Shown piece by piece: positions 1,397-44,636 of a DNA stretch of 44,636 nt. The position numbers and the translations under genes were made by a program. The first letter of the stretch is position 1. Each line of letters begins with the position of its first letter. The DNA lies in the UHGV virus genome UHGV-0349104; one strand, 5' to 3'. This DNA is from a virus. The notes beneath the pieces were generated by a model. That model did no database searches, had not been told where the DNA came from, and saw nothing but the letters and a program-made list of their open reading frames with translations.

Positions 1397-1658
1397 TAGG
1401 CCCGTGCTGCTTGGGTCGGCTTCACCGTGATGGGCGGCGCGTCCTGTGCTTTGCGGACTGGTCGAAAGAATATGGAGTTCCGGCGTGGACGGCCCGGAAC
1501 GGGTTCGTCAAAGACGTGAACTTTTGCCGTCTGTACTGCGAGAAGCGACCAGATATTGTTGAAGTGGAACTTGAAGGTTTCAAGGCATAGGCGAAAGAAA
1601 AGCCCGATGCGGGAACATCGGGCTGAAAAATAAATCAAAAAACTGAGGTGTATGAATT

Positions 1659-2297
1659 ATGCGCTATTATAGCAACAAAGTCAAGCCCATTGAAACACAG
1701 TATCATGGATATCGTTTTCGTTCACGTCTTGAAGCTAGGTGGGCTGTCTTTTTTGATGTAATGGGAATTAAGTATGAATATGAAAAAGAAGGTTTTGAAC
1801 TTTCATCTGGAAGATACCTGCCAGATTTTTGGTTGCCTGAGTGGGAAGTATGGTTTGAGGTAAAGCCTAGCTTCCCGGAAACAGAAGAACTCTATAAGTT
1901 ACAAGAATTATGTATTGAAACAGGATATGCAGCCTTATGTTCAGAAGGTATGCCAAAAGAGGAATTTTCTGGTGTATGTTTTGTATATGGGAGTTTCGTG
2001 GATGATTCTGTCACGGATAACCCGGCTATAGAACCAATATGCCTTAATATGTCTAGCTTCTTTATAAGCAATTATCCAGATGGAGATGAAGAGGCATGGC
2101 TTTTCTTAGAGGGATGGGACTCTCATTATTACTATAAAAAAAATGGCAATAAATATGTTCAATATCCAAAACGTCCTTTTATACAAATTCAAGGTGATGA
2201 AGATTATATTAAATGTGCTCTAAAATATGGACGTTTTGCAAGAGCTATAGAAAAAGCAAAGTCTGCTCGTTTTGAGTTTGGGGAAAGGGGGGAATAA
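1659..2297 (+). CDS. PD-(D/E)xK family nuclease (Hjc/VRR-NUC-like motifs), AT-rich insert
   Basis: Motifs SRLEARWAVFFD, PDFWL and FEVKP fit E..PD..(E)xK; GC drops to about 38-40% over 1640-2300 against about 60% flanks; RBS GAGGTG upstream. Confidence 0.5.
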   Translation: MRYYSNKVKPIETQYHGYRFRSRLEARWAVFFDVMGIKYEYEKEGFELSSGRYLPDFWLPEWEVWFEVKPSFPETEELYKLQELCIETGYAALCSEGMPKEEFSGVCFVYGSFVDDSVTDNPAIEPICLNMSSFFISNYPDGDEEAWLFLEGWDSHYYYKKNGNKYVQYPKRPFIQIQGDEDYIKCALKYGRFARAIEKAKSARFEFGERGE

Positions 2298-3256
2298 TGA
2301 ATACAGATTTTCGCGTATCTGTAGAGTTTTTTGCCCACCATAAAACCAAAAAACTCAAAAAGCGCCTTGGGTCGGATGGAGTTATAGCATTGCTCCAACT
2401 TTGGTCTTATGCCGCAAGATTACGTTCAGATGGGGATTTGTCGGGAATGAGCACCGAAGAGATAGAGCTTGCCGTTGACTGGAATGGGGAAGATGGCCTT
2501 TTGGTTGCGACTTTAAAGGAGGTTGGATTCCTCGATGAAGTAGATGGAACTTTTTCTCTGCATAATTGGACAGAAAACAATTCGTGGGTAGCAGGCGTAG
2601 AGACTCGTTCCGATGCTTCTCGGCTTTCGAGGATGGCTAAAGTGTTCCCTGACGAATACCAAACGCTCGTTGACGCTGGGATAAAGGGGATCAGCAAAAA
2701 AGATTACGAGTCGTTAAAGGTTGTTAACGACCGTTCAGCAGTCGTCAGAAAAATCGTTAACGACCGTTTGACGACCGTTAACGAAATGCCAAGCCCTGCC
2801 CCTGCCCCTGCTCCTGTTCCTGCCCCAATGGCATATAGTACTACCCCTGACGGGGTAGTTGTCGGCGAGAGCACGCCGACCGGACAGCAGTGTGAAGAGC
2901 AGGCTGTTGACGGGCATGGCGTGCCGTCCTGTCCTCATAAGCGCATTGTGGCCTTGTATCATGAGTTTCTTCCTGAACTTCCCGGAGTGAAAGTCTGGGA
3001 AGGGACTAGGCAGCAAAATTTGCAGGCGAGGTGGCGTGAACGTTGGAAGGCTGGGAAATATCGAACACAGGACGAAGGGATAGCGTACTGGGGAAAGCTA
3101 TTTCGGCATGTCTCGGAAAATTGCGACTGGCTTATGGGACGGGTGCAGGGCAGGAAAGGCGATAAGCCTTTCAGGGCATCGCTTGACTGGATTGTGAATG
3201 CGTCGAACTTCGCAAAACTCATTGAAGGTCGCTACGACAACCGGGAGGTGGCTTGA
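2297..3256 (+). CDS. phage replication initiation / replisome organizer protein
   Basis: C-terminal segment CPHKRIVALYHEFLPELPGVKVWEGTRQQNLQARWRE resembles conserved phage replication protein C-terminus; lies directly upstream of dnaB-like gene; PAPAPAPVPAP linker; internal iterons. Confidence 0.5.
   Translation: MNTDFRVSVEFFAHHKTKKLKKRLGSDGVIALLQLWSYAARLRSDGDLSGMSTEEIELAVDWNGEDGLLVATLKEVGFLDEVDGTFSLHNWTENNSWVAGVETRSDASRLSRMAKVFPDEYQTLVDAGIKGISKKDYESLKVVNDRSAVVRKIVNDRLTTVNEMPSPAPAPAPVPAPMAYSTTPDGVVVGESTPTGQQCEEQAVDGHGVPSCPHKRIVALYHEFLPELPGVKVWEGTRQQNLQARWRERWKAGKYRTQDEGIAYWGKLFRHVSENCDWLMGRVQGRKGDKPFRASLDWIVNASNFAKLIEGRYDNREVA
2724..2783. repeat. iteron-like direct repeats (candidate replication origin) inside initiator gene
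   Basis: GTTAACGACCGTT at 2724-2736 and 2756-2768, third ACGACCGTTAAC at 2771-2782; 32-bp spacing between first two; HpaI-like GTTAAC palindromes. Confidence 0.45.
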
Positions 3257-5158: not shown

Positions 5159-5586
5159 CGGTCTTACGCTTCACCTTGTCCTGCACGCCCACGGCACAGG
5201 CCCGAGTCCGGCACACCGTCCGTTGTGGGCACAGCGTGGCTTACAAGTCTGCCGGGCAGAAGAGCGCGGAAGCCGTGCTTGACGATCTCCTTTCTGCGCG
5301 CGCCCCGAAAAAGCCTCTAGAAGGACCTCTCGTGCTCGAATTTGTCGCGGGGATGCCGATTCCCGCATCGACCCCGAAAAAACAACGAGAGGCCATGTTG
5401 CGCGGCGAAATCGCCTATACGAAGAAGCCGGACCTCGACAACATGGTGAAGCAGCTCAAAGACGCCATGACGCGCGCGGGGTTCTGGGGGGATGACAAGC
5501 AGGTGGTGGCCCTACGCTGTTCAAAACGCTACGCCGCCGTCCCGCATTGGGAGGTAGCCGTGTACGCACAGGAGGAAGCGCAATGA
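5155..5586 (+). CDS. rusA: RusA family Holliday junction resolvase
   Basis: KKPDLDNMVKQLKDAMT and GDDKQVV motifs typical of RusA; ATGA overlap with upstream gene. Confidence 0.8.
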   Translation: MTVLRFTLSCTPTAQARVRHTVRCGHSVAYKSAGQKSAEAVLDDLLSARAPKKPLEGPLVLEFVAGMPIPASTPKKQREAMLRGEIAYTKKPDLDNMVKQLKDAMTRAGFWGDDKQVVALRCSKRYAAVPHWEVAVYAQEEAQ

Positions 5587-5765
5587 ATGAACGGAAATTG
5601 CTGCTCGGCTGGAAGGCCATCACAGCCTACACCGGAGTTAGCCGCCTCCTCATGATCCGCTACGCCTACCCCGTCCACGACTGCGACAGGGCAACTCATC
5701 ACGGGTACGGCGTCTGTGCCTATACCGACGAGCTTGACGCCCACAAGGAGGCTACCAGTGCATAA
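5583..5765 (+). CDS. small HTH DNA-binding protein
   Basis: 60 aa; ATGA overlap with rusA stop; HTH-like LLGWKAITAYTGVSRLLMIRY. Confidence 0.4.
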   Translation: MNERKLLLGWKAITAYTGVSRLLMIRYAYPVHDCDRATHHGYGVCAYTDELDAHKEATSA

Positions 5766-8721: not shown

Positions 8722-11700
8722 AGTGCTTGCGGAAATCCGCCGCGCGCTGGCCCGGAGCTGTCTCGCGGCCTTTGTGCGCTACACCATGCCCGGCTACCGC
8801 ATGGGCTGGGTGCACGAGGAAATCTGTTCCGAGCTGGATGCCTTCCTTGCCGACGTCGTAGCCGGGCGTTCCCCGCGCCTCATGCTGACCATGCCGCCCC
8901 GCCACGGGAAAAGCGAGCTGGCCTCCCGCCGCTTCCCGGCCTACGCCTTGGGCCGCTATCCCGATCTATCCGTCATTTCAACGAGCTACGCCGCCGACCT
9001 GTCCTCGCGCATGAACCGCGACGTTCAGCGCGTCATCGACAGTCCGGAATACCGGGAACTCTTCCCGGGAACAGCCCTTTACGGCAAGAATATCCGCACC
9101 GTGGGGAACGGTTCCTACCTCCGCAACTCGGATATATTCGAGGTAGTGGGGCACGCTGGATGCTACCGTTCCGCTGGCGTGGGCGGCGGCATCACGGGCA
9201 TGGGTGCGGAATGCGTTGTCATTGGAACACAAATTGCGACTCCTGACGGAGATCGCGCTATCGAGACCCTACAAGTCGGGGATAACGTGCTATCATACAA
9301 TCATCAAACGGGGGAAATTGAAACTGATATAGTGATAGCGGTAAAGGATCGATATGCAGAAGAAAGCTACCGATTACGCGATGCCCTTGGCAGAGTTCTT
9401 GAAGTTACAGGAAACCATCCGATCTTTTCACGGGGGGAATATACCCCTGCATCATCAATTGCCACGGGTGATCCTATCTTGTGCCTGGTGTGGCCTGGAG
9501 TTTGTGAGGCCGGCTTATGTGGTGGCCAAAAATATCAGGAAGGGGATGAAAGATTTCTACTGCTGCAAGGAACATTCTTGTGCCCATCATGCAGTCAAGA
9601 ACAGCAAGACGTGCCCCGGTTGTGGACGGATCATCAAACACACAGGGAGAACCAAAGGGGCAAAGACCTGCCCGGAATGTGCCGCAAAATTCAAGAAGCC
9701 GAGCCAGGTCCCTGTCGAGCATCAGCCCAGAGAAAAAATTTGCCCTATCTGCAACAAGCTCTTTATGTCTGCCCACAGGGGACGCGGTATTTTTGCCAAG
9801 TATTGCAGCAAGCGGTGCAGCGAAATTGCACACTCTATTCTGATGTCTGGCAAGGGGAATCCCCGATACCGTCACGGCATGACTCCCTTGCGGGAACAGG
9901 TGCACTCTGCGCGGGCATTCCGACAGTTTCGGCCTTTGATTTTAGACAGGGATCAGCATCGTTGTGTTCTATGTGGCAAGGAGGAAACACGGTTGGAGGT
10001 TCATCACATGGATCTTATTCCGATCAACAATGTTGCGACAAACTTGATTACGCTGTGCAGCAAGTGCCACAGGATCTTGCACGGCATGAAAGAAGAACAG
10101 TACAAGCGGGACATATTGCCAACATTGCGCGAATATACGGAACAGCACGCCGTTTTGTTGATATCCAAGTAGCACGTAATCAGAACTTCTTTGCCGGCGG
10201 TGTCCTTGTCCACAACTGCGCTATCATCGACGACCCATTCAAAGATCGGGCGTCCGCCGATTCCCCGACCATCCGCCAGAACGTCTGGGACTGGTACACG
10301 TCCACGTTGTACACGCGCCTCGCGCCCGGTGGAGGGGTGCTCATCATCAACACTCGCTGGCACATGGCTGACCTTTCCGGGCGGCTGCTTGAGGCCGCCG
10401 CACGGGGGGAGGGCGACCACTGGCGCGTGGTAAACTTCCCGGCCATCGCCACGGAGGATGAGCCGCACCGCAAGGCAGGTGAAGCCTTACACCCTGAACG
10501 CTACCCGTTGGAGCAGCTTCTTGCCATCAAGAAAGCCCTCGGCACACGCGACTGGGAGGCCCTGTACCAGCAGCGGCCTACGCCAGACGGCGGCGCCATC
10601 TTCAAATCCGAGTGGCTGCGGTTCTGGCTCCCCAAAGACCTGCCGGAGCAGTTCGACCAGCTCCTTATCTCGTGGGATATGACGTTCAAGGACGGCGACG
10701 ATACCGACTTTGTTGTGGGGCAGGTGTGGGGCCGCAAGGGGGCAGACCGCTACCTCCTCGATCAGGTCCGGCGGCGCATGGGATTTACGGACACGGTCGC
10801 CGCGTTCCGGGAGCTCGCCGCCAAATGGCCCGGCGCAACCCGCAAGCTGGTGGAAGACAAGGCCAACGGCCCGGCGGTCATCGACGCGCTGAAACATGCC
10901 GTGCCCGGTATCATCCCCGTGGAGCCGGACGGCAGCAAGACGGCTCGCGCCCATGCTGTGACTACGTTCTTCGAGGCCGGGAACGTCCTGCTCCCGCACC
11001 CTGAGCATTGCCCGTGGGCGCGGGAGTACGTCGCGGAACTGACACAGTTCCCCGGTGCGCCCCACGACGATCAATGTTTTGCTGCAGGCACTTTAGTTGC
11101 GACTTTGCGAGGGGGTATCCCAATTGAAAAAGTAAAGGAAGGTGATTTTGTTGTGACTCCTCAAGGGTTTAGGCGTGTGTTGTTCGCTGGAAAAACCGGA
11201 GAGTCTGTGTTATTGTATCGACATGGAATTTTTGCAACTGCGAATCATCCGTTCATGAAAACCAGTGGAGAAGTTTGCAAATTTGCAGAAATAGAAAAGT
11301 CTGAACTTGTTCACATGACTATAAGGGAGTTGCTAGTATGGATATTCCGAAAAGAGTTGAATTTAATGGCGTCACCTATGCCCTCATGGCAGGGGGGAAA
11401 TACTATCTTAGTCAGTCAAAAACAAACGCAGGTAGGAAAAATCCGAAGGGGCTTCATGTCGCTATTTGGGAATACTACAGTGGCAAGAAAGTCCCTAAAG
11501 GGTATGAGATTCATCACAAAGATGGTAATACACATAACAACAATTTTGACAACCTTGAGTGTTTATCACGTTGTGAACACCGCAAAACGGTTAAGCAAAA
11601 CAAAGAAAAATGCCGTAAGCACCTTGAAGAAGTACGCCCTCTTGCTACTGAGTGGCACAGGAGCGAAGAAGGCCGTGCATGGCATCGAGAGCAAAGCAGG

Positions 11701-12139
11701 AAGGCATACGCAAAAAGAGAGTATACTGAGCATGTTTGTGAGTACTGCGGCAAGACGTATAAAACGCGCCATACGGGAAAAAACCGCTTCTGTTCCCATA
11801 ATTGTGAAATCAAATGGCGATATCACAATGAATACGAGCTTGCCGAGGGTGTGTGCCAATGGTGCGGCAAACCGTTCACATACAAGACCGGAACCTGCAG
11901 AAAAAACAAAGTACGTAAATTCTGCAGCAAGTCTTGCAGCACAAGCCACTTCAACGCCCAACGCCGTGCCAGTGTATAACCTCACCGTAGAGGGCGAGCA
12001 CCTTTATTTTGCTAATGGGGTGCTCGTCCACAATTGTGACGCCACCACTCAGGCCCTCCGCGACTTCGACGCCAAACGCCCCATGTCTATCAATCCTGCT
12101 ATCCTCACTCAACCACGTATAGGGTATCGCTTCCGGTAA
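8711..12139 (+). CDS. terL: terminase large subunit precursor carrying two inteins
   Basis: N-terminal ATPase (MPPRHGKSE Walker A-like, IIDDPF Walker B region) and C-terminal nuclease region; 1142-aa ORF leaves about 487 aa of extein after removing the two inteins. Confidence 0.8.
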   Translation: MAGEVLAEIRRALARSCLAAFVRYTMPGYRMGWVHEEICSELDAFLADVVAGRSPRLMLTMPPRHGKSELASRRFPAYALGRYPDLSVISTSYAADLSSRMNRDVQRVIDSPEYRELFPGTALYGKNIRTVGNGSYLRNSDIFEVVGHAGCYRSAGVGGGITGMGAECVVIGTQIATPDGDRAIETLQVGDNVLSYNHQTGEIETDIVIAVKDRYAEESYRLRDALGRVLEVTGNHPIFSRGEYTPASSIATGDPILCLVWPGVCEAGLCGGQKYQEGDERFLLLQGTFLCPSCSQEQQDVPRLWTDHQTHRENQRGKDLPGMCRKIQEAEPGPCRASAQRKNLPYLQQALYVCPQGTRYFCQVLQQAVQRNCTLYSDVWQGESPIPSRHDSLAGTGALCAGIPTVSAFDFRQGSASLCSMWQGGNTVGGSSHGSYSDQQCCDKLDYAVQQVPQDLARHERRTVQAGHIANIARIYGTARRFVDIQVARNQNFFAGGVLVHNCAIIDDPFKDRASADSPTIRQNVWDWYTSTLYTRLAPGGGVLIINTRWHMADLSGRLLEAAARGEGDHWRVVNFPAIATEDEPHRKAGEALHPERYPLEQLLAIKKALGTRDWEALYQQRPTPDGGAIFKSEWLRFWLPKDLPEQFDQLLISWDMTFKDGDDTDFVVGQVWGRKGADRYLLDQVRRRMGFTDTVAAFRELAAKWPGATRKLVEDKANGPAVIDALKHAVPGIIPVEPDGSKTARAHAVTTFFEAGNVLLPHPEHCPWAREYVAELTQFPGAPHDDQCFAAGTLVATLRGGIPIEKVKEGDFVVTPQGFRRVLFAGKTGESVLLYRHGIFATANHPFMKTSGEVCKFAEIEKSELVHMTIRELLVWIFRKELNLMASPMPSWQGGNTILVSQKQTQVGKIRRGFMSLFGNTTVARKSLKGMRFITKMVIHITTILTTLSVYHVVNTAKRLSKTKKNAVSTLKKYALLLLSGTGAKKAVHGIESKAGRHTQKESILSMFVSTAARRIKRAIREKTASVPIIVKSNGDITMNTSLPRVCANGAANRSHTRPEPAEKTKYVNSAASLAAQATSTPNAVPVYNLTVEGEHLYFANGVLVHNCDATTQALRDFDAKRPMSINPAILTQPRIGYRFR
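9212..10216 (+). mobile_element. intein 1 in terL
   Basis: N-terminal Cys (CVVIGTQIATPDG), block B VTGNHPIF, C-terminal GGVLVHN followed by Cys+1; inserted between GMGAE and CAIIDDPF. Confidence 0.75.
9354..10172 (+). CDS. free-standing HNH endonuclease with zinc ribbons, alternate frame inside intein 1
   Basis: HNH motif RLEVHHMDLIPINNVATNLITLCSKCH; repeated Cys ribbons; ends 4 nt before intein C-terminal block; true start may lie downstream of 9354. Confidence 0.65.
   Translation: MQKKATDYAMPLAEFLKLQETIRSFHGGNIPLHHQLPRVILSCAWCGLEFVRPAYVVAKNIRKGMKDFYCCKEHSCAHHAVKNSKTCPGCGRIIKHTGRTKGAKTCPECAAKFKKPSQVPVEHQPREKICPICNKLFMSAHRGRGIFAKYCSKRCSEIAHSILMSGKGNPRYRHGMTPLREQVHSARAFRQFRPLILDRDQHRCVLCGKEETRLEVHHMDLIPINNVATNLITLCSKCHRILHGMKEEQYKRDILPTLREYTEQHAVLLISK
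11075..12034 (+). mobile_element. intein 2 in terL
   Basis: Begins CFAAGTLVATL, block B TANHPFM, ends YFANGVLVHN plus Cys+1; AT-rich interior. Confidence 0.75.
11338..11979 (+). CDS. free-standing HNH endonuclease with zinc ribbons, alternate frame inside intein 2
   Basis: N-terminal NGVTYALMAGGKYYLSQ..GYEIHHKDGNTHNNNFDNLE (HNH_3-like), then CEYCG..FCSHNCE and CQWCG..FCSKSCS ribbons; own RBS AAGGGAG. Confidence 0.7.
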   Translation: MDIPKRVEFNGVTYALMAGGKYYLSQSKTNAGRKNPKGLHVAIWEYYSGKKVPKGYEIHHKDGNTHNNNFDNLECLSRCEHRKTVKQNKEKCRKHLEEVRPLATEWHRSEEGRAWHREQSRKAYAKREYTEHVCEYCGKTYKTRHTGKNRFCSHNCEIKWRYHNEYELAEGVCQWCGKPFTYKTGTCRKNKVRKFCSKSCSTSHFNAQRRASV

Positions 12140-16895: not shown

Positions 16896-17909
16896 ATGAA
16901 TCCGACTTTTGAACAGGCCAAGCGCTACGGCTTTATCTTCCCGGGCGCCCGCATGTGGGCAACCCCGGAGAACCGCGCTCGCATCGCGCAGGACGCCGCG
17001 CTCATCACTACTCCGAACACGACCGTCCCCGCCGAGCTTCTGGCGTATATCGACCCGATGGTCATCGAAATCCTGACCGCGCCCCGGCGCGCCCGTGAAA
17101 TCTTCGGTGAAGAGAAGAAGGGCGATTGGACGACCCCGTACATGAAGTGGCGCGTGGACGAAATGACTGGAAAGACCGAGCCGTATTCCGACTATGCCAA
17201 CGGCACGACTTCGGGCGTGAACTCCGAATGGCAAACCCGCGTGCAGTACGTCTTCCAGACGTCCATCACCTACGGAGACTTTGAAGTGGACATGTCGAGC
17301 ACGGCGAAAGTTAACCTCGCTGCCTCCAAGCAGCGTGCGGCCGCCAACGTCATCGACATCGACCAGAACCGTTTCTACCTGCTCGGCGTCGCCGGGAAGG
17401 AAATCTACGGCATCCTTAACGATCCGAACCTCCCTGCTGCGATCACCGCAGGGGCCACGGGCACGGGCGGCTCCACGAAATGGGCCGACAAGACCACGGT
17501 GCAGATCTACAATGACGTCCTCGCCCTGTTCGCGCAGCTTTCCGAGCAGTCCAGCGGCCTCATTGACAAGGACACGCCCCTCAAGCTCTGCCTCTCCCCC
17601 GAACTGGCCGTTCGCCTCGGCGCGGCTACCGATTTCAACGTGTCCGTGCTGGATATGTTGAAGCGGTACTTCACCCGCATTGACATCGTGACCGTCCCCG
17701 AGCTGCACAGCATGACCGCCGGGGAAACCATGTTCCTCATCGCCCCCGAAGTGAACGGGCAGCGATCCGGCACGCTGGCCTTCGGAGAAAAGATGCGTGC
17801 TGGACGCGTCGTGCCCGACCTGTCCAGCTTCCGTCAGAAGTTCGTCGGCACCACCTACGGCGGCATCGTGCTCATGCCCTTTGCCTTTGCGCAGATGACA
17901 GGCATGTAA
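16896..17909 (+). CDS. major capsid protein
   Basis: 337 aa, RBS GGAGG, last head gene followed by strong terminator; size and position typical. Confidence 0.55.
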   Translation: MNPTFEQAKRYGFIFPGARMWATPENRARIAQDAALITTPNTTVPAELLAYIDPMVIEILTAPRRAREIFGEEKKGDWTTPYMKWRVDEMTGKTEPYSDYANGTTSGVNSEWQTRVQYVFQTSITYGDFEVDMSSTAKVNLAASKQRAAANVIDIDQNRFYLLGVAGKEIYGILNDPNLPAAITAGATGTGGSTKWADKTTVQIYNDVLALFAQLSEQSSGLIDKDTPLKLCLSPELAVRLGAATDFNVSVLDMLKRYFTRIDIVTVPELHSMTAGETMFLIAPEVNGQRSGTLAFGEKMRAGRVVPDLSSFRQKFVGTTYGGIVLMPFAFAQMTGM

Positions 17910-18206: not shown

Positions 18207-18300
18207 TTGTTGAATCTCCCCTCATCAAAAAGCTATCTTCTTCCCACTGGCTGCGCCAGAAATACCCGTGTATCCTCTTTTCAGTAGAGACGTATTCTTT

Positions 18301-18345
18301 GACATCCTCCCCCTGAAGGGGGAGGTTTTACGGCGCGTTGGATAA
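18301..18345 (+). repeat. 45-nt GC-hairpin repeat element, copy 1 of 5
   Basis: gacATCCTCCCCCTGAAGGGGGAGGTTTTACGGCGCGTTGGATAA; perfect 8-bp stem CCTCCCCC/GGGGGAGG followed by TTTTA. Confidence 0.7.
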
Positions 18346-18362
18346 GATCGTCGATGTCTATC

Positions 18363-18863
18363 TTAGTCTTCCTCTTCATCGTCTTCCTCCGTTGCCGCTT
18401 CCAGCTTTATGAACTCGGGAAGAACCGCAATGCTGCCGCATTCGTCATCCATTTCAACAGCCTTGAAGCCGAGCTTACGGGCAAAGGCGATCCGCATGGC
18501 CTGAGCCTCCCAACTTGCGTCATCGTCGTCCATATTGAGGAGGTTTACCCAGTCTTCATCTTGATAACCAATTTTCTCTTCAACCACGGCATACCAGCAG
18601 AGATCAAAATACTTTTCGTCTATACCGCGCTCTGCCATAACTTCACGTAGAGCCGTTCCAGCAGCGCCATCTTCAAGATACGGGAGATCCTCGTTCAAGA
18701 AGATGTCCTTGATGTCTATTTCGCACTGGTAGACGTAATTTCCGTATTCCTTTGCATGTCCGTAAGTACGGGCAAAGAACACCGCGCCGAAGTTATACCC
18801 TAACCCTGTTCCTGAGTTAGAGATAGCCAGATGTTCAATCATGCTTCCGTGGTATAGCTTCAT
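18363..18863 (-). CDS. DUF3990-like protein, possible ADP-ribosyltransferase-like fold
   Basis: N-terminus MKLYHGS (H-G-S motif), Tyr-rich FFARTYGHAKEYGNYVY, acidic tail EEDDEEED; start at ATG 18863 behind RBS AAGGAGAAG. Confidence 0.45.
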   Translation of the reverse strand: MKLYHGSMIEHLAISNSGTGLGYNFGAVFFARTYGHAKEYGNYVYQCEIDIKDIFLNEDLPYLEDGAAGTALREVMAERGIDEKYFDLCWYAVVEEKIGYQDEDWVNLLNMDDDDASWEAQAMRIAFARKLGFKAVEMDDECGSIAVLPEFIKLEAATEEDDEEED

Positions 18864-18876
18864 GGTGGCTTCTCCT

Positions 18877-20007
18877 TTACCCTTTCGTTGAAAATACAAT
18901 AGCACCATTTTTTGAAAAAATAAACAATTTTTCAAAAAAAGTTTTATCGTATTTCAAGGCCGTAGCCCGGATTCGATCCGCAAAGGGGATAATATCTTCC
19001 AATTTTTCGATGTCTTCCTTTGCGTCCTTATTCTCCCCATCAAACAGTCCGACCCTCCACTGTTTTCCGTTGAAATACAGACGGCACAGAGGCTTGAGCC
19101 TGTTGTCGTCAAGAAGGATAGAGCAGTAGCTGATACTGTCCCGCATGGCTACGCGCCCCGGATCAACGGTGCCCACCAGAAGCGATTTGACAAGGTAATA
19201 CGCCTCTTTTTCTTCCTCGGTGGTGACTATACGCGAATCCTGCTCTTTTCCTTGTGGGGCATCTTCGGATTCTATCTCTACAATTTCCGGTTTCTGCTGC
19301 GTCATGGCATTTTTCAATCGGTCGTTGATGCGGTCGTTGATGAACTGGTCAAGCGCAGCGGTAAGGATTGGAGTGAAGCGATCCAGAACGTTTTGCGTGA
19401 TACGCCCATCATACGTCTGTCCGATGAAAAAGCGTGCGAAATCTTCGTGGGGCGTTTCCATCTGTTCCCCCATGATGCGCTTGAACTCACGGTTGTACTT
19501 AAGTTCGTTTGCCGCGCTCATGCAGGCGTCTCGATTAAATTTGCCTTTTGCCAGCTTGCGCAGTTCCGGAAGCAGCATTTCATCCATATCGTCAAGGACG
19601 AACTCCATATAGGGTTTGCTGTCCATTTTGTTTGCTGCTTCAAGGTCGGAATAGAACCGGTAACGGTTGCCGTCCGTCAGAATGGCAATGGGGGCTTCCG
19701 TCCCGTGGAAGTAAAGCTGGAGCTGGTTGCAGTGCTTCATGTCAAGAGACGTGCCCAAAGCCTTGCATTCCAGAAGAAGGATAGGCTTGCCGTCAACAAG
19801 AATCGCATAGTCCACGCGGGCGTCCTTATATTCGCCGATGGGGGCTGAAAATTCGGGCACGACTTCCGCAGGGTTGAAAACGTCGTATCCCAGGGCCGCG
19901 ATGAAAGGCATCACCAAGGCGTTTTTCGTGGCCTCTTCGGTCTTGAGGCTATCTCCCAGATTCTTTACCTTTTTCGACAATTCAGCAATTCTTTCCGAAA
20001 AATCCAT
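18877..20007 (-). CDS. HsdR_N-type PD-(D/E)xK nuclease-like protein (stand-alone type I R N-terminal domain)
   Basis: EEATKNALVMPFIAALGYD...ARVDYAILVDGKPILLLECKALG matches type I HsdR N-terminal nuclease-fold pattern; about 250 aa of unassigned C-terminal sequence; GC about 47%. Confidence 0.5.
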   Translation of the reverse strand: MDFSERIAELSKKVKNLGDSLKTEEATKNALVMPFIAALGYDVFNPAEVVPEFSAPIGEYKDARVDYAILVDGKPILLLECKALGTSLDMKHCNQLQLYFHGTEAPIAILTDGNRYRFYSDLEAANKMDSKPYMEFVLDDMDEMLLPELRKLAKGKFNRDACMSAANELKYNREFKRIMGEQMETPHEDFARFFIGQTYDGRITQNVLDRFTPILTAALDQFINDRINDRLKNAMTQQKPEIVEIESEDAPQGKEQDSRIVTTEEEKEAYYLVKSLLVGTVDPGRVAMRDSISYCSILLDDNRLKPLCRLYFNGKQWRVGLFDGENKDAKEDIEKLEDIIPFADRIRATALKYDKTFFEKLFIFSKNGAIVFSTKG

Positions 20008-20042
20008 GGTCCTCTCTCCCTGTTCGGATTCAAGTTAATATA

Positions 20043-20642
20043 TTAAGATTTATATATTTTCTTATAGGTTTTCCAAGAATACAGTCCGGAAAGGATAGTG
20101 AGGATTCCCCATAACAAGGCCCCATTCGTATTGGGCGGCGTTTGGAGGGCACAACTCAGCCACAATACGGCTAGCACTACTGTTATCAGCACTCCAATGA
20201 TAAGGGCAATTTTTTTAGGGGGCGTCTGAGAACGTTCATGATGTATAAGCGGGTTTGGTTCTCCACGCTCTTGGGCCAATTGGTCATCAAAAAGGTGTGC
20301 GCGGATAACCTCCATCATGGGGCTATTCACCTTTGCCAATGCCTTATTTCCATTTTTGAACTCAATAATGACGGTAGACTCAGTCGTCTTGCCTCCAGCT
20401 ACCGCACCCGCAACCGCTCCGATGCCTCCAAGCAAGACGCCGCCGACAAGTGCGCCTCCCAAAGTTCCGCCGAGCTTTTTGACCGATTCTTCATTGGCTA
20501 CTTCGCAAGAGGCAATACTGGAAAGAAAAAGTTCCTTTGCTCCAAACATTTTTGAAGAGCAACGCAACTTGTTTTTATTCTTAATGTAAATATATTCTTC
20601 TTTCCCGTAGTCCCCTGCCAGAAACTTGATGTAGGTAGCCAT
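20043..20642 (-). CDS. glycine-zipper membrane protein
   Basis: LGGTLGGALVGGVLLGGIGAVAGAVAGG glycine zipper plus two C-terminal TM helices IALIIGVLITVVLAVLWL and LLWGILTILSGLYSW; GC about 42%; TATAAT and RBS AAGGGGGA upstream. Confidence 0.5.
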   Translation of the reverse strand: MATYIKFLAGDYGKEEYIYIKNKNKLRCSSKMFGAKELFLSSIASCEVANEESVKKLGGTLGGALVGGVLLGGIGAVAGAVAGGKTTESTVIIEFKNGNKALAKVNSPMMEVIRAHLFDDQLAQERGEPNPLIHHERSQTPPKKIALIIGVLITVVLAVLWLSCALQTPPNTNGALLWGILTILSGLYSWKTYKKIYKS

Positions 20643-20704
20643 ACATCATCCCCCTTATTATAGATGAGGCTATCATGGCATAGGCCGTTCCAAAAATCCA
20701 CCGC

Positions 20705-37205: not shown

Positions 37206-37251
37206 TTATCCAACGCGCCGTAAAACCTCCCCCTTCAGGGGGAGGATATAA
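37206..37251 (-). repeat. 45-nt GC-hairpin repeat element, copy 2 (minus orientation)
   Basis: TTATCCAACGCGCCGTAAAACCTCCCCCTTCAGGGGGAGGATATAA; terminator-like on minus strand just downstream of the Cys-rich operon. Confidence 0.7.
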
Positions 37252-38294: not shown

Positions 38295-38555
38295 TCATTC
38301 GATGATTTCCCAGTCTTCCGCGAGCATGTCCGTTTGGCTCGCCAGCCAAGGAACGAAACGATAGTCTGCTGTTTTCATCCCGATCCACGGCAACAGGCAA
38401 GGAGGATCGGCGTTGACTTCTTCGCCCCAGAAATCGGAACAGGTGCGAACATCTTCAGAATGAACGAGACGCAACCACATACCTTTGCCGTTCCATCCTG
38501 CCCGCGCAACACGTTTGTCGACTTTTAAAGCTTCAAGAGCTTGTCCGAAGTTCAT
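38295..38555 (-). CDS. DUF2829 family protein (Tad2-like candidate anti-defence)
   Basis: MNFGQALEALKVDKRVARAGWNGKGMWLRL...MKTADYRFVPWLASQTDMLAEDWEII matches my memory of the DUF2829 pattern (memory-based, not searched). Confidence 0.45.
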   Translation of the reverse strand: MNFGQALEALKVDKRVARAGWNGKGMWLRLVHSEDVRTCSDFWGEEVNADPPCLLPWIGMKTADYRFVPWLASQTDMLAEDWEIIE

Positions 38556-38769
38556 GTTTTTCCCTTTCCGCGTGATTCGTATGCGCGGCCCACGGTTTGG
38601 GGTATGAAAAGCCCCGCCGGGGGAGGGCGGGGCGTGGGGTGCTTCTGCAATTTTGACAAGAGCTAATGAAAGCTCTATCCTAAAGTGTCACGTTCAGGTA
38701 GGAGAAGCGAGGCACTATGCCACGTTCTTCTGCTCAAGGCCCCGAACCATAAAGGACTCGGGGCCTTTT

Positions 38770-39021
38770 TCATACTTTCTCAGCAATTCTCAGCTTGCTT
38801 GCCGGGACCGTCCATTTTCCCTCGTAGCCGTACACGTTGACGTACATAGCCTTGCGGCCTTTCCCGAAATCACGGGGATACGGGGCTGTGGAGGCCGTAA
38901 CGGTGATGGTTTGACGTTCGCCGCCTACCTTGGCTCGGTAGAGAAAACGGCGTCCCGGAATTATCGATGCCAAATCAGGACATTTTAGTCTGATGTCTGG
39001 GAGGGCGTCGGTGTCGGGCAT
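38770..39021 (-). CDS. hypothetical small protein
   Basis: ORF in accessory region; start uncertain. Confidence 0.25.
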   Translation of the reverse strand: MPDTDALPDIRLKCPDLASIIPGRRFLYRAKVGGERQTITVTASTAPYPRDFGKGRKAMYVNVYGYEGKWTVPASKLRIAEKV

Positions 39022-39251
39022 GGCGTTACTCCGTTGAACTCTTTCAATGTTCCGTCGCTCCATATGACTCTGTGGGTACTGTTCTCAGAGTCTACAATGA
39101 CGAACACGATGTCCTTCTTCTGCTTCTCTGAAAGTATCCCGCTCATCTCACCAGACCTATACGCAAGATGCATACAGAAAAAGAACATGATGAGCGCGTA
39201 AACCATCCCCATAAATTTTGAGTTCATGAATTTTGCGAAGGAGCTATTCAT
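38985..39251 (-). CDS. small membrane protein
   Basis: N-terminal TM MGMVYALIMFFFCMHLAY; Pro/Thr-rich C-terminus; AT-rich. Confidence 0.35.
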   Translation of the reverse strand: MNSSFAKFMNSKFMGMVYALIMFFFCMHLAYRSGEMSGILSEKQKKDIVFVIVDSENSTHRVIWSDGTLKEFNGVTPCPTPTPSQTSD

Positions 39252-39332
39252 GGTTGCCCTTATTCTTAAGTTTCTTCATCAGCTTATACAGGAGGGGCGC
39301 TTTACCGTCTTCTCTGTCGCGTTCATCTTCTT

Positions 39333-39377
39333 GACATCCTCCCCCTTAAGGGAGAGGTTTTACGGCGCGTTGGATAA
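39333..39377 (+). repeat. 45-nt GC-hairpin repeat element, copy 3
   Basis: GACATCCTCCCCCTTAAGGGAGAGGTTTTACGGCGCGTTGGATAA; two substitutions against copy 1. Confidence 0.7.
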
Positions 39378-39471
39378 AGCGAGTATCTTTACCAACATGC
39401 TGAAATTACTCGGTTATTTTCAATGACAAATGTTCTCGGAAGCCGTGTGCTGACCATTCAAAGGAGGGCAA

Positions 39472-40449
39472 GTGATGATAAAAGATGTTTCCATTGAACT
39501 TATTCAGAAGTGTGTGAACCATTGTATTCATTGCTCTTCCTGCTCAACAGAGGAATCAGTTGCGATGCTGGATATCGACACGATGCGCCGGGTCATTCGG
39601 ACACTCCAAGGGCTGAAGGTCGAGAGGGTCTGCCTTTCCGGCGGCGAGCCGTTTCTACATCCCAATCTGTTGGAAATCGTCAGACAGTTAGTCGGCTGCG
39701 GCATGACGGTGGACGTATACTCTAGCGGGATCCTGAAAGAGGAAGGGGCACCAGAACCGTTGTCCCTTGAGCGGCTGTCCCTTATGAAGGACGCCGGATT
39801 GAGGTCACTCCTGTTTAATGTGCAGTCGGTGGACGACCCCACCTATGATCGTATCACACAGAGCAAAGGGCATTTCCCCTTGCTGCAGATGAGTATTGCC
39901 AACGCCATCGCCTGCGGAATTCGAACGGAAATTCACTTTGTCCCCATGCGGCAGAATGTACATGAAGCAGAGGCAGTGATCCGATTTGCTGAGCGGACAG
40001 GGATAGAACAGGTCAATTTTTTGAAGCTGGTTCCTCACGGGCGCGCCCAGGAAAATGCGCAGAGTCTGATGCTCAGCGATGAAGAGCTGGCGGCACTGTG
40101 TTCCCGCCTGGAGGATTTGCAGACTCAGGGAAAATCCATCCGGTTGGGATTGCCTCTGTCCATTCAGGGAAATACTCCGCCATGCCACGCGGTGAGAAAA
40201 AAATTATACATTAAATTCGACGGTTCGGTTTTTGGATGCGAGGCGTTTAAATATATTCAATTCCAGGATGAAAACGGAAGCCCCGTTTTACCCAGCAACA
40301 TCTTGGAAAAGGACATCGAGGAAATCTATTACAACTCTGAGTACTTGCAGCGGAGCCTCAAACTTGTGGAACATTATGAAGCCTGCAAGATTGGCTGCGA
40401 AAATTGTCCGGTGCAGAAGTATCTGAAAGATGGGGAGTTGTCAAAATGA
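39472..40449 (+). CDS. radical SAM enzyme with SPASM/twitch-type C-terminal Cys cluster
   Basis: CVNHCIHC (CxxxCxxC) at residues 15-22; GGEPFLHPNL SAM-binding-like; C-terminal CHAVRKKLYIKFDGSVFGC (Cx12Gx4C) and CKIGCENC; GC about 48%; RBS AAGGAGGG. Confidence 0.7.
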   Translation: MMIKDVSIELIQKCVNHCIHCSSCSTEESVAMLDIDTMRRVIRTLQGLKVERVCLSGGEPFLHPNLLEIVRQLVGCGMTVDVYSSGILKEEGAPEPLSLERLSLMKDAGLRSLLFNVQSVDDPTYDRITQSKGHFPLLQMSIANAIACGIRTEIHFVPMRQNVHEAEAVIRFAERTGIEQVNFLKLVPHGRAQENAQSLMLSDEELAALCSRLEDLQTQGKSIRLGLPLSIQGNTPPCHAVRKKLYIKFDGSVFGCEAFKYIQFQDENGSPVLPSNILEKDIEEIYYNSEYLQRSLKLVEHYEACKIGCENCPVQKYLKDGELSK

Positions 40450-40976
40450 GCTACGAAATCAATGACCGAACGTTAATCACTGAGCTGCGCGACAAGATCC
40501 CTAGTGCTGTGAAGGTTAGATACGACGAACTTGAGACAGAGCTGAAAGAAAAAAAGCTGAAGTTACCGGAGAATTTCACCCATCCTCTTGATAAAGAAAT
40601 CATCGGGGAAGGCGGGAAATTGGCAAAGCTTTTATCGGAACAGGAGAATGCGATTTCCTATTCCAAAGCGGGCGAATTAGCCCACCTGTGGCGCACACTA
40701 CTCGATAAATCAATTGTATGCCTCCGATATTTAGACACTCGGGAGCCATTTCAGGAGAATCCGAATAAGGTTATTGTGGCCTATGGGATAGACAAATTAG
40801 AAGAATACCACCGGCGATATACAGAATTTGAAAGTCTCATGTACGGCTCAAACGCCCATTATCGGGATCATGTGTTTCACGCGATCCGGGTTTGGATGTT
40901 GGGCGTGTACTGCATGCTGACGGATTTCAATAACAGCGTCGGAAATCAGACGGGTCATGAGGTACATCGTATCTAA
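40446..40976 (+). CDS. radical-SAM partner protein, possibly 3'-truncated (HD- or HEPN-like)
   Basis: ATGA translational coupling; C-terminus HYRDHVFHAIRVWMLG looks like the start of an HD motif or an Rx4H motif; stop overlaps a convergent minus-strand ORF. Confidence 0.4.
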   Translation: MSYEINDRTLITELRDKIPSAVKVRYDELETELKEKKLKLPENFTHPLDKEIIGEGGKLAKLLSEQENAISYSKAGELAHLWRTLLDKSIVCLRYLDTREPFQENPNKVIVAYGIDKLEEYHRRYTEFESLMYGSNAHYRDHVFHAIRVWMLGVYCMLTDFNNSVGNQTGHEVHRI

Positions 40977-41148
40977 ACCATGAAGGACTGGTATTGAAAA
41001 CCTCGTTGTCGACCATCCCGGTTAAGACTGCGTGAATCGTTTTAGAAGAAATTCCGGTTTCTCCGTTGGCTAACCACATCTGTTCCCGCCATTGCTGTGG
41101 AAGCGAAAGTATCTCAGCCGTGTAATCCCCGTACAAATCAACACTCAT
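40927..41148 (-). CDS. hypothetical small protein
   Basis: 73 aa; RBS GAGGTGAG; high GC; last gene of leftward recombination operon. Confidence 0.35.
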   Translation of the reverse strand: MSVDLYGDYTAEILSLPQQWREQMWLANGETGISSKTIHAVLTGMVDNEVFNTSPSWFRYDVPHDPSDFRRCY

Positions 41149-41161
41149 GATTCATCTCACC

Positions 41162-41407
41162 TCATATGCTTGTGAGCCTATACTTTTCATTGAGTACAAA
41201 GGCTTCCCCACGATGACCGGGAAGCCGTTCCGCCGTGTTTGGGAATTTCAAACGAAGAATCACCTTGCGCCCTGTCTGTTTTGAAAAACGTTCGGCTGCG
41301 GGAAGACTATCCCACGCCCTGACGGGCGGAAGAATGCCCCCCGAATCCTTGTAGCGTTTAAGCTTCTTTACCGTGGTCACATGCCATACGATCATAGTCT
41401 TTCCCAA
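41162..41407 (-). CDS. hypothetical small protein
   Basis: 81 aa between Gp157 and last operon gene. Confidence 0.35.
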   Translation of the reverse strand: MGKTMIVWHVTTVKKLKRYKDSGGILPPVRAWDSLPAAERFSKQTGRKVILRLKFPNTAERLPGHRGEAFVLNEKYRLTSI

Positions 41408-42345: not shown

Positions 42346-43006
42346 TGTGTCCTCCGTTGATGGCGTTCAGAAATTCGGAAACATCGGCCTTCGTCAGTTC
42401 ACGGGAACTTGAAAGAGGCCGCCCAAAGAATTGTGAAAGTTCGGAAAGATACGCCTCGCGGCTGTCACCATGCCGTTTTGTCAGATAGGCCATGAGCGCC
42501 TTTGACTGCTCCTGCGTCATCGGGCTGGCGTTTTCCGCCTTCGCCTTTGCCCGTTGCTGTGCGGCCCCGTTTCTGGGGGCGAGATGGTCCGTTTCGGCGT
42601 CCGGGTCGGGCATCTCCTCCGTAGGGATGCAGAACGTCTGGAACATGGCGTACTTCATGGCAATGGACTGCGCCTTGGGCAATGCCTTGTCCCCGCTGTC
42701 CATCGCTTCGCCCACGGTCACACAATGAACGCTGGAACCGTCCTCGGCGTAGAACGTGAAGCGCACCTTCGCGGTCACATAGGCCATGACCGTGCCCTTG
42801 GCGTTCGCCCGTTCCTCGCGTGTCGTTTCCAGCACCTCCGGCACACAGAACACGCCATGTTGGGACATGACCGGATGCAGGGCGTTGTACACATCGTCGA
42901 TCCCCCGGAACTTGAAGGAGGCGAACCCGCTGGTCTGCCTGTCCTTGCCGATGGAGCCGCAATCCCGCATGACCGCGATGATCGCGCTGTAAATCTTCGC
43001 TTCCAT
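42323..43006 (-). CDS. ERF family single-strand annealing protein
   Basis: FKFRGIDDVYNALHPVMSQHGVF and AMKYAMFQTF match ERF pattern; adjacent to ssb. Confidence 0.6.
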   Translation of the reverse strand: MEAKIYSAIIAVMRDCGSIGKDRQTSGFASFKFRGIDDVYNALHPVMSQHGVFCVPEVLETTREERANAKGTVMAYVTAKVRFTFYAEDGSSVHCVTVGEAMDSGDKALPKAQSIAMKYAMFQTFCIPTEEMPDPDAETDHLAPRNGAAQQRAKAKAENASPMTQEQSKALMAYLTKRHGDSREAYLSELSQFFGRPLSSSRELTKADVSEFLNAINGGHNGQPQSC

Positions 43007-44396: not shown

Positions 44397-44455
44397 TTAT
44401 CCAACGCGCCGTAAAACCTCTCCCTTAAGGGGGAGGATATAAGGCGCGTTGGATA
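44397..44455 (-). repeat. 45-nt GC-hairpin repeat element, copy 4, with outer inverted arms
   Basis: ATCCAACGCGCC-GTAAAACCTCTCCCTTAAGGGGGAGGATATAA-GGCGCGTTGGAT; outer 10-bp arms CCAACGCGCC/GGCGCGTTGG. Confidence 0.65.
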
Positions 44456-44504: not shown

Positions 44505-44555
44505 TTACCCAGCGCGCCGTAAAGCCTCGCCCTTCAGGGCGGGGATATAAGGCGC
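44505..44555 (-). repeat. 45-nt GC-hairpin repeat element, copy 5 (diverged, compensatory stem changes)
   Basis: CCCAGCGCGCCGTAAAGCCTCGCCCTTCAGGGCGGGGATATAAGGCGC; stem C-to-G paired with G-to-C; A-to-G gives T:G wobble. Confidence 0.6.
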
Positions 44556-44636
44556 ACCTTAACTGGAATTCTTGATTTTTCCGATACCATAAGGTATGAT
44601 CTGTCGCATGGAAGCACGAATCGTTTCAGAACTCCG

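Follow-up and report, generated by a model that had tools for sequence, protein, structure and literature searches.

Ophion, a defence system active against jumbo phages, combines the radical S-adenosylmethionine (radical-SAM) protein OpnA with the PHP phosphoesterase OpnB and the phosphoribosyltransferase (PRTase) OpnC, and has been proposed to act on nucleotides or nucleic acids (bioRxiv 10.1101/2025.09.30.679545). It is the closest described analogue of the locus analysed here, a radical-SAM gene coupled to a second open reading frame (ORF) in UHGV-0349104, the genome of a temperate phage of about 44.6 kb whose host is Bilophila wadsworthia; the whole stretch of 44,636 nucleotides is called the window. 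The locus is foreign DNA that was copied unchanged from a three-gene operon in a defence island of the host, together with a hairpin mini-element derived from an insertion sequence (IS) of the IS200/IS605 type, and the cassette is probably broken in the phage. Like Ophion, the native operon has three genes, joins a radical-SAM enzyme to a predicted metal-dependent phosphoesterase and an enzyme directed at the base-sugar bond, and occurs in defence islands. In contrast to Ophion, the phosphoesterase belongs to the HD/PDEase type and not to the PHP type, the third gene encodes a protein of the uracil-DNA glycosylase (UDG) superfamily or a DUF2284 protein and not a PRTase, and the radical-SAM enzyme has a SPASM-derived C-terminal domain. 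Moreover, whereas Ophion was described from Gammaproteobacteria, the hosts of the radical-SAM/HD operons are Bacillota, Desulfobacterota, Bacteroidota and archaea, and the copy in the window is truncated.

Other known systems resemble the locus in part. Viperins (pVip) have neither an auxiliary-cluster domain nor an obligatory HD partner, and the window enzyme scores higher against SPASM/twitch enzymes than against viperin. It has the fold and the C-terminal Cx12Gx4C motif in common with the SPASM/twitch maturases (anSME, PqqE, SuiB, SkfB, HxsC), and some members of its family, as well as fusions, retain the maturase-type CX2CX5CX3C set; in contrast to these maturases, it comes without a precursor peptide that we could find, and its constant partner is an HD enzyme of 500 aa. 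Bacterial clusters with HMUDK_hel, thymidylate-synthase-like, Nmad2 and TIR genes, known through Pfam families that comparative genomics has defined, house more distant members of the HD-partner family, with or without a radical-SAM gene. The clade of the window lacks those genes, a UDG gene taking their place, and no Pfam model exists for the HD partners. The IS in the host operon is built like IS200/IS605 elements, with a Y1 TnpA and a TnpB, subterminal hairpins, a fixed target tetranucleotide and no target duplication, and the mini-element, which equals its fused ends, resembles their transposase-less derivatives (PATE/MITE-like). What sets the window apart from these elements is the 1.56 kb of ordinary flanking DNA that lies between two target-type sites beside the mini-element. 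We know of no described IS200/IS605 case in which flanking non-IS DNA has been placed between target-type sites, although no exhaustive search for one was made.

The host origin of the segment can be read from the chromosome. Positions 39374-40929 are 100% identical to positions 8929-10484 of contig L007, and equally to the other B. wadsworthia defence-island contigs of the series L005-L010; the two mismatches that BLAST reports against L007 fall beyond 40929. In the captured segment, the complete radical-SAM gene is preceded by 98 nt of leader and continues into the HD-partner gene, of which the first 484 nt are present (Table 1). In B. wadsworthia the operon continues with the rest of this 527-aa partner and with a gene for a 223-aa UDG-superfamily protein (PF03167, 9e-11), which is absent from the window. 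Its neighbours include, by PADLOC, a DpdE/DrmD SNF2 helicase (766 bits) and a DrmMI/type IIG methyltransferase and, by PADLOC or Pfam, an MNT (PDC-S09) protein with a HEPN-type (HepT-like) partner and a type I methyltransferase. The GC content of the native operon is 47%, compared with 52.5% for its contig. Since the whole operon is found only in the chromosome, the direction of transfer was from chromosome to phage.

The phage side of the exchange is provided by a related phage (L069) with an empty site. Window positions 38563-39330 match L069 6311-5544 with 99.6% identity, and homology ends at 39330 and resumes at 40930, from where positions up to 43551 match again (99.5-99.6%); the mini-element is absent from L069. 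The insert takes the place of 105 nt of a phage ORF that is intact in L069 (138 aa, 5214..5630) and has cluster relatives of 83 or 133 aa; both of its ends survive in the window as remnants. The insert stands out by its GC content of 48.1% between flanks of 53.5% and 55.3%, in a window of 56.6%. The initial annotation had thus seen the low value correctly, at about 48%, but had set it against flanks of about 62%, a value that the window reaches only inside the ERF gene (42501-43000).

Comparison with the host also shows what was lost. The initial annotation had placed a 325-aa radical-SAM ORF and a 176-aa ORF correctly, with an ATGA overlap of stop and start codon and a hairpin repeat directly to the left, but had taken them for an intact two-gene island with the shorter ORF as the complete partner. 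However, codons 1-162 of that ORF (40446-40931) match the 527-aa partner, and residues 163-176 (NSVGNQTGHEVHRI) come from phage DNA. A homologue from B. wadsworthia (P0001, 175 aa) is 100% identical to the 176-aa ORF and has another C-terminal tail, longer relatives run past residue ~162 into ALCHDLGYPLEK, the HD motif, and the intact allele P0021 (527 aa) is identical over residues 1-162 and continues as DFNKDGKIF...ALCHDLGYPLEK. In L005-L008, the partner gene is split after codon 162 by an IS200/IS605 element of 1,758 bp (L007 10485-12242), and its precise removal restores an ORF of 526/527 aa. The IS-free reconstruction and P0021 together identify the window ORF as native residues 1-162 followed by 14 residues read from the phage, so that the partner is cut before the catalytic HD dyad and the third gene is missing.

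The full-length partner belongs to a large family. Its homologues form more than 1,140 clusters at 90% identity, and a profile search of 1.84 billion representatives gave 808 matches at the 50% identity level, 404 of them at E <= 1e-10. Even the most distant members keep R140-D141-H142, H145, C199-H200-D201-LGYP, H306, H355 and D376-E377, an H...HD...H...H...D pattern that we take to be that of binuclear HD enzymes. HD/PDEase proteins are defined by H...HD...D metal-binding residues on an all-helical core; the full-length partner is probably a metal-dependent phosphohydrolase of this type, in a family without an existing name, and the earlier guess of a nucleotide-directed partner fits this prediction. 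The 176-aa ORF itself does not belong to the HD/PDEase class: it retains R140, D141, H142 and H145 and lacks H200-D201, H306, H355 and D376, that is, five of the seven invariant metal-site residues. Its N-terminal region is helical and well modelled (pLDDT 82-92 over residues 1-100). The partner had no match in Pfam, NCBIfam, PHROGs, PADLOC or PDB sequences, a Foldseek search of the PDB with its model gave nothing significant, no relative was found in a scan of IMG/VR, and neither the full-length partner, the window fragment nor the UDG protein matched PADLOC-DB v2 (2023). Because only the radical-SAM enzyme can still be catalytic, the window cassette is most likely a non-functional remnant; with the HD active site gone and the UDG gene absent, the copy is most likely inactive as a system.

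Homologues for which enough sequence is available reach about 500-530 aa, and those that fall short of this length carry an IS insertion or a frameshift or run off the end of a contig. The partner gene has been disrupted independently by a frameshift in L001, by another IS in L002-L004 and by the Bilophila IS in L005-L010. Recoding of stop codons was considered for the short homologues and was ruled out by the frameshift in L001, the IS insertions and the contig ends. The repeated disruption hints that the gene may be costly to carry, evidence that is anecdotal since most partner homologues are intact. In L002 (6716..8030), a phage-type contig with YopX and, further downstream, HipA, a different TnpB-bearing element cuts the partner after residue ~239, and nothing is left of its remaining codons or of the UDG gene. 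The same gene was truncated independently in this contig, and as the event involves a different element at a different site, it is uninformative on the target rule described below.

The radical-SAM gene is intact. Its ORF opens with GTG, followed directly by ATG, and a 100% identical B. wadsworthia protein is annotated at NCBI with 324 aa, consistent with a start at the ATG at 39475. The protein belongs to the radical SAM superfamily (PF04055; Pfam Radical_SAM match 8.4e-17) and passes the Pfam SPASM cut-off narrowly (22.2 bits compared with 21.5). Counting the GTG codon as residue 1, the CxxxCxxC motif lies at residues 14-21, one residue before the position first given for it (15-22). The C-terminal motifs Cx12Gx4C and CxxxCxxC are present as described earlier, at C238-x12-G-x4-C256 and C305-x3-C309-x2-C312. 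The SPASM subfamily with two auxiliary 4Fe-4S clusters is defined by seven cysteines (CX9-15GX4C ... CX2CX5CX3C ... C), a set that is incomplete in the window enzyme: the clade of the window has five C-terminal cysteines, only C238, C256 and C312 are invariant across the family, and the full set is kept in members from Desulfobacterota and Asgard archaea and in fusions. As the cysteine set is incomplete and the Pfam score barely passes, the enzyme is a reduced, twitch-like SPASM derivative, and the assignment to the SPASM/twitch group in the initial annotation is supported.

No curated NCBIfam cut-off was reached by the enzyme, the best score being 76.4 bits compared with a cut-off of 380 for a tungsten-cofactor maturase; PqqE (73.3 and 381) and MoaA (57.5-65.4 and 231-325) also stayed below theirs. 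Its match to the PADLOC pVip profile is weak and confined to the generic radical-SAM core, unlike the full-length viperin-profile match, without an auxiliary-cluster domain and often with a linked kinase, that defines pVip proteins; the enzyme is not a viperin, in line with the initial annotation. The AlphaFold2 (AF2) model (pLDDT 91) is closest in structure to SuiB (score 26.6), SkfB (25.9), BlsE (25.8) and PqqE (25.2), with anSME (23.3), viperin (23.2) and MoaA (22.5) behind; on such models, a peptide substrate and a nucleotide substrate are not separable by fold alone. When 50,697 phage records were searched by tblastn, the radical-SAM enzyme had distant matches only (20-23% identity) and the partner had none.

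The mini-element and the breakpoints suggest how the segment reached the phage. The chromosomal IS carries TnpB in L005-L008 and in L007 and L008 also the Y1 TnpA; its Pfam matches (Y1_Tnp, OrfB_IS605/Cas12f1-like_TNB) and the hairpins at both ends place it in the IS200/IS605 family. The mini-element reads on the minus strand 5'-CCAACGCGCCGTAAAACCTCTCCC-TTAA-GGGGGAGGATGTCAA, which is the start and hairpin of the left end joined to the right-end terminus of the full IS, and forms a hairpin of an 8-bp stem and a TTAA loop. The mini-element has the same sequence as one terminus of the chromosomal IS (L007 12205-12242) and carries the opposite IS terminus (TTGACATCC) at its other end; since both termini are present, it is a fused-ends derivative without transposase. 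It can therefore be classed as a non-autonomous element derived from IS200/IS605 (39331-39373), whose mobilisation is predicted from sequence; TnpA and TnpB genes are absent from the window. There are six copies in the window, five behind TTAT and one, at 44509..44570, behind TTAC. This last copy keeps more of the IS interior. At 44401-44452 the element forms a near-perfect palindrome, each strand of which has an arm of the left-end type. In metagenomes, exact copies occur at three unrelated sites, in each case 3' of TTAT as well.

The same rule applies to the chromosomal IS and to the exchange. By comparison with P0021, the IS lies between ...GATTTCA and ATAAAGACG... (TTTCA / ATAAAG) without target duplication, and on the strand in which 5'-CCAACGCG... 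leads into the element, the IS stands directly 3' of TTAT. All four exchange breakpoints lie immediately 3' of TTAT on the strand with the left end of the element: in the chromosome TCTTTAT/TGAAATC, which is the insertion point of the IS, and CGCTTTAT/GTAATCC; in the phage CTGTTAT/CTCTTGC and TCTTTAT/GAAGATG. One breakpoint is thus the exact nucleotide at which the IS interrupts the chromosomal gene. Because the four breakpoints share the insertion rule of the element, we infer a reaction of the Y1 TnpA type, in which a Y1 (HUH) TnpA supplied in trans would cleave single strands at TTAT sites and join them.

The pair of genes to which the fragment belongs is conserved far beyond Bilophila. A scan of GTDB species genomes gave 46 loci in Bacillota, Desulfobacterota, Spirochaetota, Bacteroidota, Planctomycetota, Cloacimonadota, Asgard archaea and Methanomassiliicoccales, with a patchy phyletic spread, on mobile elements and with atypical GC content. 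The radical-SAM gene adjoins the partner gene in 21 of the 26 non-redundant loci, in either order, and four proteins (P0327, P0396, P0409, P0421) are single-chain radical-SAM::HD fusions. From this adjacency in different phyla and the fusions in some genomes, we predict that the two proteins act as one unit. The third component varies: UDG is confined to the clade of the window, apart from a UDG-Panacea fusion in L024, whereas elsewhere we found DUF2284 (13 loci), HMUDK_hel, the 5-hmdU-kinase helical domain (9), ThsB-type TIR (6), Nmad2 (5), thymidylate-synthase-like proteins (4 + 4), XRE with ImmA (4) and SLOG-TIR (2). On a Parabacteroides plasmid, the genes for TIR, Nmad2, HMUDK_hel, the radical-SAM enzyme and the partner follow one another, with an integrase gene about 1.5 kb upstream, and in Lachnospiraceae the operon lies amid genes of the type found in integrative and conjugative elements (ICEs). 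These neighbourhoods show the pair in conflict and mobile-element loci, with neighbours that centre on pyrimidine, nucleotide or DNA chemistry.

Two further neighbours were seen. In L024 (69..1211), a 380-aa fusion of UDG with a SocA/Panacea antitoxin domain lies directly upstream of a full-length HD-partner homologue; such a neighbour hints at a possible role of the HD protein as a toxic effector that is kept under control. In operons of Firmicutes, a 69-aa ORF (L011 6822..7031; also in L001, L016-L018, L021 and L023) is translationally coupled to the start of the radical-SAM gene and has a weak match to Phd/YefM antitoxins (E 0.029, below the cut-off). It was rejected as a precursor peptide, being not Cys-rich, only weakly Phd/YefM-like and absent from Bilophila and from the window.

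For the intact operon, we propose that the radical-SAM enzyme would alter a pyrimidine-type nucleotide or nucleic-acid base, that the binuclear HD enzyme would act next, by hydrolysis of a phosphoester within this pathway, and that the variable third module (UDG, DUF2284, or HMUDK_hel along with TIR, Nmad2 and thymidylate-synthase-like proteins) would act on the base or the DNA, the system serving in conflict with phages or mobile elements. That the three modules form such a nucleotide or base pathway is a tentative proposal, one we would sooner doubt than affirm; that the intact operon is a new nucleotide-directed anti-phage system we put forward as a candidate with a little less than even confidence. 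In the literature, no paper was found that combines radical SAM, HD and UDG in defence or that covers the HD partner, and papers on DUF2284 were uninformative.

Several points weigh against our interpretation. Both junctions show microhomology of 4-6 nt (ATAAAG, ATAA), and template switching or short-homology recombination could lead to the same arrangement with no part played by TnpA. An exact-junction search of metagenome and viral contigs returned no donor allele in which the hairpin directly precedes the radical-SAM gene. The putative defence role of the intact operon is deduced from gene context, and by sequence the radical-SAM enzyme is closest to maturases of proteins or peptides and not to enzymes that act on nucleotides. 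Finally, the exact 176-aa product is on record from five samples, so the phage lineage with this arrangement persists, which leaves room for a use of the fragment, and the intact radical-SAM gene could act alone.

If the fragment were a working two-gene defence island in the phage, that is, a moron made up of a radical-SAM/SPASM enzyme and a 176-aa nucleotide- or RNA-directed partner, one would expect what is indeed seen, namely two open, ATGA-coupled ORFs, a pair conserved in defence contexts elsewhere and recurrence in five samples. However, homologues of the short ORF extend to about 500-530 aa unless broken, its last 14 residues are phage-derived, five of its seven metal-site residues and the UDG gene are missing, and the insertion destroyed a phage ORF, which makes this view very improbable. 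The persistence of the arrangement would also suit a counter-defence decoy, kept by the phage because the radical-SAM enzyme, together with the first 162 residues of the HD effector, would interfere with the radical-SAM/HD/UDG system of the host, for example through dominant-negative assembly or substrate competition. Identity with the host copy, a well-modelled helical N-terminal region and a Tad2-like anti-Thoeris gene about 800 nt away agree with such a role, but the breakpoints resemble accidental products of a transposase and disrupt a phage ORF, zero substitutions give no sign of selection, and nothing similar was seen in related phages or, for the partner, in IMG/VR. We give the decoy only a slim chance; on this reading, a Y1 (IS200/IS605) transposase would be able to bring ordinary host DNA from between two TTAT sites into a phage, which would keep the captured piece for counter-defence. 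A captured and broken host copy remains our preferred reading of the window.

The chemistry of the intact operon allows other views. A SPASM radical-SAM enzyme might post-translationally modify the HD protein or a small peptide, as anSME, PqqE and HxsC do with their substrates, and this maturase model draws on the best sequence matches (tungsten-cofactor enzyme maturase, PqqE, ScmF, mycofactocin maturase), on the best structural matches (SuiB, SkfB, PqqE), on strictly adjacent, translationally coupled and sometimes fused genes, and on HXS, a published defence system with a radical-SAM-matured effector (PMC13128918). However, no signature of a maturase substrate, a cysteine or other residue conserved only in the radical-SAM-linked HD clades, was found, and we consider the model unlikely. 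Rather improbable, in our view, is a pathway akin to thymidine hypermodification that hypermodifies pyrimidines in the DNA of its own carrier, for self-marking or protection and not for attack on phages. The 5-hmdU DNA kinase helical domains, a full P-loop kinase fusion and the thymidylate-synthase-like genes associated with the pair would fit it, as would the flipping of bases out of DNA by the UDG superfamily and the precedent of M6 gp53, a radical-SAM enzyme that acts on DNA-bound modified thymidine (PMC8989533); according to the same paper, the 5-hmU DNA kinase had been predicted by comparative genomics. Yet M6 gp53 is SPL-like rather than SPASM-type, the loci studied here showed neither an aGPT-Pplase nor a PLP enzyme, kinase and thymidylate-synthase-like genes are absent from the clade of the window, and TIR, SLOG and XRE/ImmA neighbours fit inducible immunity better. 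A housekeeping or cofactor gene of the anSME, MoaA or PqqE type beside an unrelated ORF is effectively refuted. The similarity to these families is generic (E 1e-15 to 1e-21) and the scores of 55-76 bits fall far below curated cut-offs of 231-650, the gene lacks a sulfatase, PqqA-D or Moa context, its conserved pairing extends to fusions, and the spread is patchy, on mobile elements and of atypical GC content. Neither of the two outcomes that the initial annotation had named as speaking against it, a housekeeping family and a pair unconserved elsewhere, was found. Among these views, we keep to the nucleotide- or base-directed operon as our working proposal.

The surroundings of the insert are those of a Bilophila prophage. 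The window phage has ERF, SSB and Gp157 genes, related prophages have an integrase, and relatives of the window ORFs are annotated in B. wadsworthia genomes; the phage structural region had no megablast match among the 50,697 phage records. A scan of 39100-41200 for promoters and terminators gave nothing that exceeded the shuffled background. The Pfam match of the Tad2-like ORF (Table 1) makes an anti-Thoeris sponge in the window phage probable. The ERF-SSB-Gp157 modules of L069 and of the related Bilophila prophages L062-L068 are 99.3-99.9% identical, and the stretch between Gp157 and the integrase is highly mosaic, with differing DNA methylases, an HU-like protein and Lar-like genes; because of this mosaicism, the insertion is placed in a recombination-prone early region. 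A second island of low GC content (18350..20650, 44-51%, genes on the minus strand) begins just past a 337-aa ORF (16896..17909) and adjoins the hairpin copy at 18299-18341. It comprises an ORF of 190 aa that weakly matches ART-PolyVal, a gene for a 376-aa protein with a domain of the HSDR_N nuclease type (4.8e-13) and an unassigned ORF of 199 aa, and may be further cargo linked to the same mobile element; an exact-protein look-up within it returned no record, probably owing to a start codon that differs from the recorded one. Positions 1501..2500 (39-40% GC) and 11001..12000 (46-47%) also lie markedly below the 57% average.

Table 1. Features of the insert and its surroundings in the window.
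Feature	Position	Strand	Remarks
Hairpin mini-element	39331..39373	-	43 nt; non-autonomous, IS200/IS605-type; left edge of insert
Captured chromosomal segment	39374..40929	+	1,556 nt; 48% GC
Intact radical-SAM gene	39472..40449	+	325 aa (GTG 39472) or 324 aa (ATG 39475)
Truncated partner ORF	40446..40976	+	176 aa; stop codon 40974-40976
5' remnant of interrupted phage ORF	40927..41148	-	73 aa; by comparison with L069
3' remnant of interrupted phage ORF	39244..39330	-	by comparison with L069, where 5544-5630 is the end of the ORF
Tad2-like ORF (Thoeris anti-defence 2)	38295..38555	-	86 aa; Pfam match 8.3e-27; ~800 nt from captured fragment
Further hairpin copy or variant (five in all)	18299..18341	-	
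Further hairpin copy or variant	37210..37251	+	
Further hairpin copy or variant	44401..44452	both	
Further hairpin copy or variant	44509..44570	+	

A better understanding of this locus changes the way in which the window is to be read, since what appeared to be an intact, phage-borne defence pair is probably a broken host copy and, as it stands, unsuitable for cloning. The window also offers a natural example of a host-to-phage transfer whose four breakpoints all coincide with the target site of an IS200/IS605 element; this suggests a possible role of Y1 transposases in carrying non-IS DNA from chromosome to phage or back. New here is a widespread pair of a radical-SAM/SPASM enzyme and a probable HD phosphohydrolase of about 500 aa, the latter without a model in Pfam, NCBIfam or PADLOC. 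The pair is found from Bacillota to Asgard archaea, on plasmids and in ICEs as well as in defence islands. The native operon thus represents a widespread, unnamed radical-SAM/HD module that is a credible candidate for radical-SAM-based immunity, and if the pair does defend against phages, it would add a new effector chemistry beside viperins, Ophion and HXS.

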